IMG/VR virus record: IMGVR_UViG_3300035145_001165
Coordinates: 1 to 64,000 of that record
Reading direction: 5' to 3' (one strand)
DNA length: 64,000 nt
Source: a virus
The position numbers and the translations under genes were made by a program. The notes under the pieces are model-generated. The model saw nothing but the letters and a program-made list of their open reading frames with translations, did not search any database and was not told the origin of the DNA. Positions within the stretch are counted from its first letter, which is position 1. Each line of letters opens with the position of its first letter. This document shows positions 55,935 through 60,511 of this stretch, one piece after another.

Positions 55935-55971
55935 ATAGTAGCACAAAAAAAGAGGGGTGACAACCCCTCTC
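55935..55971 (-). terminator. Rho-independent terminator with an overlapping promoter
   Basis: AGAGGGGT-TGTC-ACCCCTCT plus a U-tract. TTGTCA-17-TACTAT overlaps it. Confidence 0.75.
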
Positions 55972-56128
55972 AAGAACTGATCTTCCAGTTTTTATTGCCA
56001 CGTGACTTGAGATCAACCCACTTGGCATAGTGTACACCACGGTACGTTAAGAACGCGAATGTTCTATCTGGATCGTGTTTAGCAGGATCATAGTCTGGAA
56101 GGTCATATTGAAATCTGACCTTCAGCAT
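55970..56128 (-). CDS. DUF4278-like small protein (52 aa)
   Basis: Read manually: MLKVRFQYDLPDYDPAKHDPDRTFAFLTYRGVHYAKW..., with an LTYRGVxY motif. Confidence 0.7.
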   Translation of the reverse strand: MLKVRFQYDLPDYDPAKHDPDRTFAFLTYRGVHYAKWVDLKSRGNKNWKISS

Positions 56129-56137
56129 TACCTATCC

Positions 56138-56305
56138 TCACTTGGTATAGGTATGACCTCTATAGCAGAAAGTACCGTGTACCTCGTCAGCATCACCTTG
56201 CTTGCACTCAAACTTGACACCGCGATAGGTAGTCATAGCAATCTGTGCATCGTGGAGAGCTGCTGCTTTCTTGATCTGCTTTTTGATTAGAGTAAGTGTG
56301 TTCAT
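56138..56305 (-). CDS. DUF4278-like 'downstream peptide' (55 aa)
   Basis: Read manually: MNTLTLIKKQIKKAAALHDAQIAMTTYRGVKF...FCYRGHTYTK. Two YRG motifs, directly after the aptamer. Confidence 0.75.
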   Translation of the reverse strand: MNTLTLIKKQIKKAAALHDAQIAMTTYRGVKFECKQGDADEVHGTFCYRGHTYTK

Positions 56306-56335
56306 TGTACTGAAATAATAGGGTTGGTTAAAACC

Positions 56336-56524
56336 CGTTCCTTCAGTCGTTTGCGTCCCAATAGTGACTACACTCAGGCACGGATTCCTTTACGGTCTCC
56401 ACTAACTCCACAACAATGTGAGGAGGAACCTCTGCTCTGTTCTTTTGGATCCTGAGCACTAATGCATCAGCATCAGAACAGATCATATTTGCATAGAGTA
56501 AAAACTCAACCATTGGGATGAACG
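56336..56524 (-). ncRNA. Glutamine riboswitch-like aptamer 2 (glnA/Downstream-peptide family) with an ORF in the P2 loop
   Basis: CGTTCA-TCCCAATGGT...[ORF]...ACTATTGGGA-CGCAAACGACTGAAGGAACG. Confidence 0.75.
56343..56513 (-). CDS. Riboswitch-embedded small protein 2 (56 aa, C-X35-C)
   Basis: MVEFLLYANMICSDAD...VPECSHYWDAND. The ATG lies in the P2 5' strand and the last codons in the aptamer 3' half. Confidence 0.7.
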   Translation of the reverse strand: MVEFLLYANMICSDADALVLRIQKNRAEVPPHIVVELVETVKESVPECSHYWDAND

Positions 56525-56527
56525 CTC

Positions 56528-56761
56528 CGTTCCGCGACTTACTTGCGTCCTCAGGTAAAGGTACCGCTACATTGACCTTCCACTTTTGTCTTGAGATATC
56601 CAATCAGATTCCACTTAGATCGTTGATCTAGGTTGGGATCCATTTGAATCTCCACTCGACGTTGGAGGAACCTTTCACAGGACATATGCCAACCATAAGG
56701 ATTGGCGTCATCGTGATGGGCAAGGGTCAATGCCAACAGCAGACTTACCATTGGATGAACG
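56528..56761 (-). ncRNA. Glutamine riboswitch-like aptamer 1 with an ORF in the P2 loop
   Basis: CGTTCA-TCC-AAT-GGTAA...[ORF]...TTACC-TGA-GGA-CGCAAGTAAGTCGCGGAACG, starting at the predicted +1. Confidence 0.65.
56551..56751 (-). CDS. Riboswitch-embedded small protein 1 (66 aa, hydrophobic N-terminus, C-X35-C)
   Basis: MVSLLLALTLAHHDDANPYGWHMSCERF...EGQCSGTFT. Confidence 0.7.
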   Translation of the reverse strand: MVSLLLALTLAHHDDANPYGWHMSCERFLQRRVEIQMDPNLDQRSKWNLIGYLKTKVEGQCSGTFT

Positions 56762-56768
56762 TACAGAC

Positions 56769-56798
56769 ATTATACGATGTCTTGTACTATGTAGTCAA
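56769..56798 (-). promoter_or_regulatory. sigma70-like promoter of the riboswitch operon
   Basis: TTGACT-18 bp-TATAAT, 7 nt upstream of aptamer 1. Confidence 0.75.
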
Positions 56799-56802
56799 GG
56801 TG

Positions 56803-56824
56803 TTTGGTATACTACTATACCAAA
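56803..56824. promoter_or_regulatory. NtcA-type binding site
   Basis: TTTGGTATA-CTAC-TATACCAAA is a perfect palindrome containing GTA-N8-TAC (56807-56820). Confidence 0.6.
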
Positions 56825-60349: not shown

Positions 60350-60466
60350 AACAGAAAAGTAAGACCATCAGGGAAATGGTGGAGTTACTATTTCCTCACC
60401 ACCCTCGGGTGAGGATATGAGAGACGTGATTTATACACCCTAGAGGTCTCGGTTTGTGGGGTGTTT
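60350..60466 (-). ncRNA. PhotoRC-II-like structured psbA 5' leader
   Basis: ACACCC/GGGTGT, GAGAC/GTCTC pseudoknot, TCCTCACC/GGTGAGGA and ACCAT/ATGGT helices upstream of psbA. Confidence 0.7.
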
Positions 60467-60511
60467 ACAACAGTCTAAAAAACGTTACGTTTCTTAACCG
60501 ATGATTTATTT

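Follow-up and report, generated by a model that had tools for sequence, protein, structure and literature searches.

Genes nested in the P2 loops of a predicted twin glutamine-riboswitch aptamer in a cyanomyovirus leader

The DNA analysed here (positions 1 to 64,000 of the IMG/VR virus record IMGVR_UViG_3300035145_001165, hereafter the window, 64,000 nucleotides (nt) in length) is part of an 80-kb IMG/VR contig and belongs to a T4-like cyanomyovirus, carrying psbD, a PhotoRC-II RNA and three tRNAs. On its minus strand, flanked by a DUF6433 gene and by two small genes for proteins with YRG motifs, lies a 426-nt element made of two units, each of which resembles a glutamine-riboswitch aptamer and holds a whole open reading frame (ORF) in the loop of its P2 helix. 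The element had been noticed from the sequence alone as a pair of tandem aptamers with the start and stop regions of each embedded ORF base-paired, and the letters and coordinates given for both units in that original prediction were exact on re-reading the sequence.

The aptamer units and their natural relatives

Unit 1 reads, in order, CGTTCA, TCC, A, ATG, an ORF of 66 amino acids (aa), TGA, GGA and CGCAAGTAAGTCGCGGAACG (as RNA, GGA then CGCAAGUAAGUCGCGGAACG). After a GAG linker, unit 2 reads CGTTCA, TCCCA, ATG, an ORF of 56 aa that ends TGG GAC GCA AAC GAC TGA, and AGGAACG. The parts of the element are as follows.

56761..56336, minus strand: whole twin-unit element, 426 nt, from sequence reading
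56528..56761, minus strand: aptamer unit 1, consisting of CGUUCA, P2 (with ORF1 inside) and ACGCAAGUA-AGUCG-C-GGAACG
56551..56751, minus strand: ORF1, 66 aa, phrog_6471, with its stop codon within the P2 3' strand
56725..56755, minus strand: 5' arm of the extended P2 helix (P2 base, start codon and first ~10 ORF1 codons), partner 56548..56577
56548..56577, minus strand: 3' arm of the extended P2 helix (last ~9 ORF1 codons, stop codon and GGA), partner 56725..56755
56535..56539, minus strand: P3 5' strand AGUCG, in unit 1, which pairs with CGACU at 56345..56349 (P3 in the Rfam-model alignment)
56525..56527, minus strand: linker GAG, 3 nt, the triloop of the inner hairpin GGAACG-GAG-CGUUC
56336..56524, minus strand: aptamer unit 2, consisting of CGUUCA, P2' (with ORF2 inside) and ACGCAAA-CGACU-GAA-GGAACG
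56509..56518, minus strand: P2' 5' strand UCCCAAUGGU, which includes the ORF2 start codon, partner 56356..56365
56356..56365, minus strand: P2' 3' strand ACUAUUGGGA, which is also the ORF2 codons H-Y-W-D, partner 56509..56518
56343..56513, minus strand: ORF2, 56 aa, phrog_504, whose final five codons and stop (WDAND*) double as the aptamer 3' core

Two Rfam families describe glutamine riboswitches: RF01739 (glnA, Glutamine-I; cut-off 35 bits) and RF01704 (Downstream-peptide, Glutamine-II; cut-off 33 bits). Neither matched in the window at the gathering threshold or at E <= 10, nor did either match across the 80-kb contig. The region itself is widespread, being found by distant blastn in 411 phage records, all of them cyanophages, and its P2 loops vary in length. 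For instance, S-SM1 has a 12-nt P2 (UCCC-UUCG-GGGA) in unit 1 and an ORF in unit 2, the unit 1 P2 of S-RIM2 is 38 nt, and Syn9 has ORFs in both units (gp196 and gp197), followed by the YRG gene gp198; S-IOM18 is likewise a long/long isolate. Loci in IMG/VR were gathered by two queries, one with the YRG protein and one with a pattern for unit 2 with a short P2, and 117 contigs from the latter have an identical unit 2 3' core and a P2' hairpin of 11–27 nt. Cyanophage loci yielded 178 composite elements (129 unique), in which the sequence outside P2 is almost invariant and all four combinations of short hairpin and long, ORF-bearing loop occur: 79 short/short, 43 long/long, 29 long/short and 27 short/long, the counts of the short and long classes being skewed by the choice of queries. 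A second clade, with a P3 segment AGCC..., adds 81 further unique elements (30 short/long, 21 short/short, 15 long/long and 15 long/short). Overall, the four combinations are spread over more than 250 cyanophage contigs.

The natural forms with short loops are recognised by Rfam. The short/short element L093, which equals the window at every base outside P2, including the GAG linker, scores 46.4 bits on RF01739, and further short-loop relatives score 46.3 (L105), 45.9 (L096), 43.6 (L084) and 42.9 bits (L088). With an ORF in either unit, only a sub-threshold match to a single unit is left (26–29 bits for unit 1 and 33–34 bits for unit 2), and the long/long relative L005 has no RF01739 match. 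Therefore, the window is missed by RF01739 because of its pair of 160–210 nt insertions, and the expectation that covariance models would overlook it, yet recognise the element once its loops are short, is borne out by these relatives. On RF01704 the best short-loop units reach 25.5–32.1 bits, which is under the cut-off, and no 3' hairpin with a GGAACGG loop (the Glutamine-II pseudoknot) encloses GGAACG in the sequence. Hallmarks of both families had been claimed at first; of the two models, glnA is the better match.

In solved structures the pockets of Glutamine-I and Glutamine-II are virtually identical, and consist of C1–C5 paired with GAACG, a CGC linking strand immediately 3' of the hairpin, and the G next to GGAACG on its 3' side (PMC6698751). 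Both units of the window hold these nucleotides (CGUUC, CGC and GGAACGG, by sequence identity with the solved structures). P1, CGUUC/GAACG, is present twice and is invariant in the 178 elements, and no covariation is possible there. The pocket nucleotides kept in both units, together with short-loop natural forms that exceed the RF01739 cut-off, support the view that the units are homologues of glutamine-riboswitch aptamers, as had been proposed.

Two further observations concern the origin and distribution of the loops. Compared with an ORF1-bearing P2 (e.g. that of L005), the non-coding 38-nt P2 of S-RIM2 (L001:859-922) has the same first 9 nt and matches at about 18 of the final 20 nt, ATG being changed to ATT, as though the middle of ORF1 had been deleted. 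When short P2 hairpins are aligned with ORF1-bearing forms under free gaps, the alignment over-fits, and S-RIM2 alone is suggestive. A 15-base junction pattern compared with genome contigs gave only chance matches in unrelated bacteria and is uninformative on hosts.

The probable twin fold, its closing helices and its coding core

Alignments to RF01739 that exceed the cut-off span both units. In these, the first CGUUC and the last GAACG form P1, the hairpin of unit 1 aligns as P2, and P3 is made by AGU(CG) from unit 1 and (CG)ACU from unit 2. The 5' loop-E strand corresponds to ACGCAAGUA, and GAAGGAACG of unit 2 supplies both its 3' counterpart and the strand that completes P1. Of the two loop-E halves, AGUA is confined to unit 1 and GAA to unit 2, neither unit having both strands, and a complete loop E is thus found only in the spanning fold. 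The inner part, GGAACG-GAG-CGUUCA-P2'-ACGCAAA, is a second junction with a hairpin-closed CGUUC:GAACG helix, an A, P2' and a CGC strand, and it uses the same P3. Pairing of P3 is kept through substitutions (AGUCG:CGACU, AGUCA:UGACU, GGUCG:CGACU, AGUCG:CGAUU, AGCCAACU:AGUUUGCU and AGCCGACU:AGUUGACU), and the linker is 3 nt in nearly every element. Folding energies prefer the outer P1 by 1.5–5 kcal/mol in short forms. Similarly, the unconstrained minimum free energy (MFE) structure of the 426-nt RNA contains the outer P1, P2 with the long ORF1 helix, P3, the inner hairpin and the 10-bp P2' (-136.1 kcal/mol, z = -2.63, with 1 of 100 shuffles as good). These results point to an integrated twin with a shared P3 and a split loop E. 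The units are non-independent under either fold, whether nested or formed of cis aptamers with a P3 pseudoknot.

Within this frame, each ORF is closed over by a helix. In unit 1, P2 consists of TCC/GGA, a 3x3 internal loop in which AAU faces UGA, and then GGUAAG/CUUUACC. In unit 2 it is TCCCAATGGT/ACTATTGGGA, 10 bp including one G-U, with a duplex energy of -15.2 kcal/mol. Both the pairing of start region with stop region in unit 1 and the 10-bp helix with one G-U in unit 2 had been predicted, and both exist.

The helix over ORF1 extends well beyond the P2 base. Among 59 unique sequences, positions 1–3 of the base of ORF1-form P2 are 100% paired, position 3 being C-G in 34 and U-A in 25. Further in, a stretch consisting of the ORF1 start codon plus the ~9 codons after it is paired with the stop codon plus the ~9 codons before it. 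The 30-pair structure of this start/end helix is 81% paired in alignment A1, compared with 36–43% for slid partners, and has 88 double-change cells, compared with 47 +/- 5 in shuffles, none of 500 shuffles reaching 88. Its inner 8-pair helix is 96% paired, with exchange among G-C, C-G and U-A. The end duplexes have energies of -10 to -21 kcal/mol, as against about -3 for control windows internal to the ORF, and this holds without the first five pairs. Additionally, the variable C-terminal tail of ORF1 (GVYT, DMLV, TVLS, GTFT and others) covaries with the N-terminal codons. The first and last ~10 codons of ORF1 form a covarying helix of ~20–30 bp.

Conserved pairing over ORF2 is shorter. In the window's clade, positions 1–4 of the P2' base are 100% paired, with C-G (41), U-A (11) and U-G (7) at position 4; in the AGCC clade the P2' base is 93–100% paired, with three pair types at each of positions 3–5. 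Across both clades, the basal P2 pairs of ORF-bearing forms are 93–100% paired and show C-G, U-A and A-U exchanges. Compensatory changes thus occur at the base of the stem in short and ORF-bearing forms alike, the loop being an ORF instead of 3–8 nt, and the proposed seating of both ORFs in P2 loops is upheld by this covariation of the closing pairs. A conserved long P2 for ORF2 was rejected, as 5 bp alone are conserved among relatives, and the 10-bp P2' of the window is a lineage feature. The idea that a long helix buries the ATG therefore stands for ORF1, in which the helix is conserved, and falls for ORF2, in which conservation is limited to the 5-bp stem.

Both ORF1 and ORF2 are conserved as proteins with free third positions. 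ORF1 has a hydrophobic N-terminus and two conserved Cys, and is 65–66 aa in relatives, with conserved residues and variable third positions. The AF2 models are helical for both proteins (pLDDT 79 for ORF1, in which the N-terminal helix is hydrophobic and a helical hairpin is modelled with confidence, and 82 for ORF2). In every family and clade the ORF starts 3–7 nt into P2 (rarely 17) and has no leader of its own. Between the ORF1 stop and the P2 terminus are 2 nt (UAGGA or UGAGA), except in some members of the AGCC clade, where the stop falls within AAGUAA; the ORF2 stop is always the UGA of CGACUGAAGG. Among 48 unique coding sequences, third-position diversity in the body of ORF2 is ~0.2–0.7 (about 0.5), invariant residues included, and across W-D-A-N-D-stop it is 0.00, 0.00, 0.00, 0.08, 0.00 and 0.00. 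The ORF2 end is under double constraint, as protein and as RNA. The original prediction that the aptamer 3' core is coding (WDAND*) agrees with this near-zero diversity, which marks constraint at the nucleotide level. The best 120 ORF2 homologue clusters include 117 that end WDAND, WDAHD or WDANG, and so far the family appears to be known only inside the aptamer.

The linker GAG and the preceding G read GGAG, a candidate Shine-Dalgarno sequence for ORF2. In the AGUCG clade GAG is present in 57 of 59 elements with ORF2, as against 5 of 70 others, and in the AGCC clade in 2 of 61. As a general Shine-Dalgarno sequence for ORF2 it fails in the AGCC clade, and the association may simply reflect lineage.

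The ORFs in the loops fall into three or more families that look unrelated. As to whether ORF1 and ORF2 could form one protein family, an hhalign comparison of the two is weak (E = 0.012, probability 3.7%), and one between two ORF2 subfamilies gives E = 2e-4, helped by the RNA-constrained tail. Loop proteins of the AGCC clade (L321-L440) are very diverse and 49–73 aa long, all with a hydrophobic N-terminus and a pair of Cys separated by ~35 residues. A family found in unit 1 of this clade starts like a signal peptide (MTKALLLLAWVPLLS...), and some ORF1-like members of the clade run into the aptamer core, ending GRK-stop at AAGUAA. Among the database proteins P0043, P0050 and P0096, two ORF2 homologues read through the aptamer UGA (WDANDWRNG...), which is UGG there in a conserved core, and one is a chimera with a sequencing-adaptor-like tail. 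In ORF1, the stretch GGCAYAUG..UGUGAAAGGU (window 56640-56690, minus strand) is invariant even at synonymous sites in 59 sequences, which hints at further RNA-level constraint inside the loop.

Promoter, leader and downstream genes

The element is preceded by promoter sequences and followed by a short leader and two genes.

56807..56820, minus strand: GTA-N8-TAC (NtcA-type) box, just 5' of the -35 hexamer, from sequence reading
56769..56798, minus strand: sigma-70-type promoter TTGACT-18-TATAAT, with 11 of 12 consensus matches
56306..56335, minus strand: leader or expression platform, containing a small hairpin and, at 56315..56309, UUUCAGU, the complement of aptamer strand ACUGAAG
56138..56305, minus strand: downstream gene 1, a 55-aa YRG protein (DUF4278-like, IF17-like; phrog_545), from Pfam and PHROG
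55970..56128, minus strand: downstream gene 2, a 52-aa YRG protein (phrog_6192), from the ORF list and PHROG
55950..55971, minus strand: intrinsic-terminator-like hairpin that closes the operon, a 9-bp stem and then a T run

With the -10 hexamer ending 7 nt upstream of the first CGTTCA, transcription probably begins at the aptamer, and nearly all related loci keep the promoter in position and sequence. Within 60 nt upstream, GTA-N8-TAC is found in 99 of the 129 unique related elements, often as the full TGTA-N8-TACA and far above chance, which suggests additional control of the operon by NtcA, the nitrogen regulator of the host. The candidate NtcA box is centred at about -51, and is not at the classical -41.5 activator site. 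An inverted repeat surrounds the -10 hexamer (GACAT-cg-TATAAT-GTC; window 56765-56782, minus strand), and its arms covary among phages (GGTC..GACC, GCAC..GTGC, GAGT..ACTC and GGGT..ACCC). This repeat could be a DNA-level operator, or could be akin to the promoter-early stem-loops known from T4-type phages.

Both downstream ORFs have YRG motifs. Against Pfam DUF4278 (PF14105; cut-off 25.3 bits), the 55-aa YRG protein of the window scores 19.5 bits (E = 1.3e-3), and 22 of its 22 homologues match at E < 0.01 (best 8.3e-5), these matches being below the cut-off. A sequence search of the PDB with the YRG-protein profile returned nothing meaningful. DUF4278 marks IF17, the glutamine-synthetase inactivating factor, and glutamine riboswitches of the hosts are translational ON switches for DUF4278/IF17-like genes (PMC6212724). 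The host switch probably works by freeing a strand that pairs near the ribosome-binding site (PMC6212724; PMC6698751). In the phage leaders that were folded, CUGAAGG pairs with YUUYAG directly 5' of an AGGAG Shine-Dalgarno sequence in 8 of 8; the counterpart in the window is a pairing of ACUGAAG with UUUCAGU that lies 4 nt ahead of the AUG. By homology, this region would be the expression platform.

About one third of the leaders (e.g. L003:1318-1375 and L002:1113-1170; not that of the window) have an extra element of ~30 nt between the aptamer and the Shine-Dalgarno sequence. It consists of GGAAAACGGAUCC, a covarying hairpin (AGC-GAAA-GCU, CUG-CGAAAG-CAG or CACCC-GUAA-GGGU), GAGAAGGUUAA and UUUUCC. 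Its ACGGA...GAAGG recalls a degenerate 3' half of a third aptamer; glutamine aptamers have been reported in triples.

Proposed switch, alternatives and known systems

Given the observed architecture, homology, covariation and overlapping constraint, the interpretation favoured here, with moderate confidence, is that the locus serves a cyanomyovirus operon as its 5' leader, in which a twin glnA-type aptamer, with both P2 hairpins expanded around genes, turns the YRG genes on with glutamine and shuts the embedded genes. Two pocket modules (each a CGUUC:GAACG helix, an A, a P2 hairpin and a CGC strand) would be joined back-to-back via one P3 (AGUCG:CGACU), and the long-range closing helices would keep the aptamer foldable despite the ORF loops. 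Glutamine would stabilise the P1/pocket fold, as in host riboswitches, and the stabilised fold would pull CUGAAGG out of the helix beside the downstream start codon, turning translation of YRG (IF17-like) ON. Homology with the host riboswitches is what suggests that the phage variant binds glutamine and acts as an ON switch for YRG.

The start codons of ORF1 and ORF2, and their entire ribosome-landing sites, are built of P1/P2 nucleotides. The AUG of ORF1 is ~10 nt from the likely 5' end, and the region upstream of ORF2 is GGAACG-GAG-CGUUCAUCCCA. Initiation by the 30S subunit would require the P1 and P2 strands at ORF1, and the inner-helix and P2' strands at ORF2. Because the landing sites are made of these strands, initiation on the nested genes and folding of the aptamer would be mutually exclusive. 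The glutamine-bound RNA would shut the embedded genes, ribosomes on ORF1 or ORF2 would unfold the sensor, and termination at the ORF2 stop would place a ribosome over the P1 3' strand. ORF1 may be translatable mainly on nascent RNA, before its own 3' arm exists. From this geometry, reciprocal control of the embedded and downstream genes is plausible. A full two-way, translation-coupled glutamine switch, in which the nested genes are off and the IF17-like gene on, ribosomes dismantle the sensor and ORF1 is translated only before its own 3' end is transcribed, is offered tentatively and is rather doubtful.

Several points weigh against the favoured interpretation. Either unit alone scores under the Rfam cut-offs, and the canonical P3 hairpin is replaced. 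Covariation of P3 consists of few independent changes, and the commonest P3 of the AGCC clade has two C.A mismatches; P1 being invariant, covariation cannot separate the nested fold from two cis aptamers with a P3 pseudoknot. For ORF2, a 5-bp stem that closes a ~150-nt translated loop is weak, and ribosome traffic could leave the sensor mostly unfolded. The downstream gene of the window is without a clear Shine-Dalgarno sequence, AGGAG being present in most relatives, and the GAG linker, as a GGAG Shine-Dalgarno sequence, is tied to ORF2 in one clade only.

The main rival, which is possible if on balance unlikely, holds that the riboswitch serves the YRG gene only, that the P2 loops are the sole insertion-tolerant sites of the leader, and that the coupling is unselected. 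Small early genes would be gained and lost by recombination between conserved aptamer cores, and the closing helices would be kept for folding only. The four presence/absence combinations are in keeping with such exchange, occurring even with a near-identical downstream gene (L006, which is short/long, compared with L004, L011 and the window, which are long/long), and so is the occupation of the loops by at least three unrelated-looking ORF families. Yet the ORFs uniformly start 3–7 nt into P2, have no leader of their own and end in the P2 3' strand or core, which is unexpected of random insertion. Also in favour of this rival, the 38-nt P2 of S-RIM2 resembles a remnant of ORF1 deletion and ORF2 is without conserved pairing past 5 bp. 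Against it, the ORF1 helix is far longer than loop closure needs, and among the top 120 ORF2 homologue clusters none occurs without the tail encoded by the aptamer. The sole difference between this explanation and the favoured one is whether the unavoidable mutual exclusion serves regulation.

A second alternative, which is improbable, is that of two independent tandem aptamers, each binding glutamine alone and with no shared architecture, as in the original prediction and the 2010 alignment. Each unit does have the full set of pocket nucleotides, unit 2 alone reaches 33–34 bits, and Weinberg et al. aligned units separately and reported tandem glnA RNAs. However, unit 2 lacks AGUA and unit 1 lacks GAA, the stretches that lie between the CGC strand and GGAACG are complementary across the units and co-vary, the linker is fixed at 3 nt, and the best Rfam alignment and the MFE structure both cover two units. 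What survives of the tandem description is the presence of two units; their independence is contradicted by the shared covarying P3, the split loop E, the fixed linker and the spanning Rfam match. Finally, it is very improbable that the ORF-bearing forms no longer sense glutamine and keep half-motifs for other roles (5'-end protection, start/stop contexts, ORF1-ORF2-YRG translational coupling or a protein-binding site): these forms are without an Rfam match at the cut-off, and a ribosome at the ORF2 stop would cover the P1 3' strand and the anti-Shine-Dalgarno strand, which could couple YRG to ORF2 and not to glutamine, but their cores are identical base for base to those of short-loop forms, synonymous sites and pocket nucleotides included, and their P2 stems still covary, a full retention that is hard to explain without the original fold in use.

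The glutamine riboswitch is already known, including in T4-like cyanophage genomes, as are tandem and triple arrangements of glutamine aptamers and the link between the riboswitch and DUF4278 genes (PMC6212724). Like the glnA riboswitch (type 1, RF01739; Klahn et al. 2018), the phage element has P1 CGUUC/GAACG, the P2 position and the loop-E strands ACGNAAGUA and GAAGGAACG, and it lies upstream of DUF4278/IF17-like genes, an association described for glutamine riboswitches (PMC6212724); its ON logic, via strand pairing near the ribosome-binding site, is probably the same. In contrast to that riboswitch, the loop E flanking P3 is complete in the phage only across both units (AAGUA in unit 1 and GAA in unit 2), a second inner pocket module that shares P3 stands in place of the P3 hairpin, the P2 loops hold genes of 150–210 nt, part of the core is translated, and the window is invisible to the covariance model. 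With Glutamine-II (RF01704) the element shares CGUUCA, a hairpin, CGCA, GGAACGG, the same pocket nucleotides and downstream YRG peptides, but it is without the 3' hairpin that encloses GGAACG (and thus has no H-type pseudoknot) and scores below the cut-off. The pocket helix of Glutamine-II can assemble from two separate strands, with domain swapping in the crystal (PMC6698751), and strand exchange between the two phage units is therefore plausible.

Tandem glnA RNAs (Weinberg et al. 2010) also have two pocket modules per leader, and the 2010 alignment includes phage-type pairs; the phage modules differ in that they share a helix and split one loop-E motif. Its phage-type metagenome sequences have their units aligned separately, and one ORF2-bearing unit is left unannotated in a flank. 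ORF-bearing units and a shared P3 are not mentioned in the main text or in the parts of the supplement that were examined. In the literature searched, no description was found of genes in aptamer loops, a covarying start/end helix such as that of ORF1, a translated core or a twin with a shared P3; absence there is no proof, and the nested genes appear to be undescribed.

Group I and group II introns carry homing endonuclease or maturase ORFs in peripheral loops. As in the phage element, a structured functional RNA there has a whole gene in a terminal loop, and a closing helix unites the core. However, intron ORFs encode mobility or splicing factors for their own RNA, whereas the phage RNA would be a metabolite sensor, and the start and stop of the phage ORF are built into the helices and core of that sensor. 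In the MS2 maturation gene, long-distance pairing hides the start site, and the nascent RNA alone is translated. Start sites are also hidden by RNA pairing in the leaders of T4 genes e, soc and 49 (PMC3014915). Similarly, the ORF1 start codon lies in a helix whose partner arises ~190 nt later, which would leave a possible kinetic window, but the partner in the phage RNA is ORF1's own 3' end, and the helix also serves as P2 of the aptamer.

Riboswitch aptamers are usually taken as compact and non-coding, and covariance-model annotation and gene callers assume no overlap between the two kinds of feature. These assumptions are broken by a predicted ligand-sensing fold that is kept across hundreds of marine cyanophage contigs while holding whole genes in its loops, by a covarying helix of ~20–30 bp that links the two ends of one gene, and by the reading of part of the ligand-pocket strand as codons. 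Since Rfam finds no ORF-bearing form, long-loop riboswitches are likely to be missed systematically. The four short/long combinations form a natural series on translation versus aptamer folding, and phage control of host nitrogen status may be tied to a family of mini-proteins, seen so far only within this RNA, via IF17-like genes, the NtcA-type box and glutamine sensing. If the two-way switch is real, an aptamer that is partly coding would give opposite outputs from one ligand-binding event.

Elsewhere in the window, the PhotoRC-II RNA (79.5 bits; 60380-60476, minus strand) lies upstream of photosystem genes, and a second copy is present on the related contig L084.

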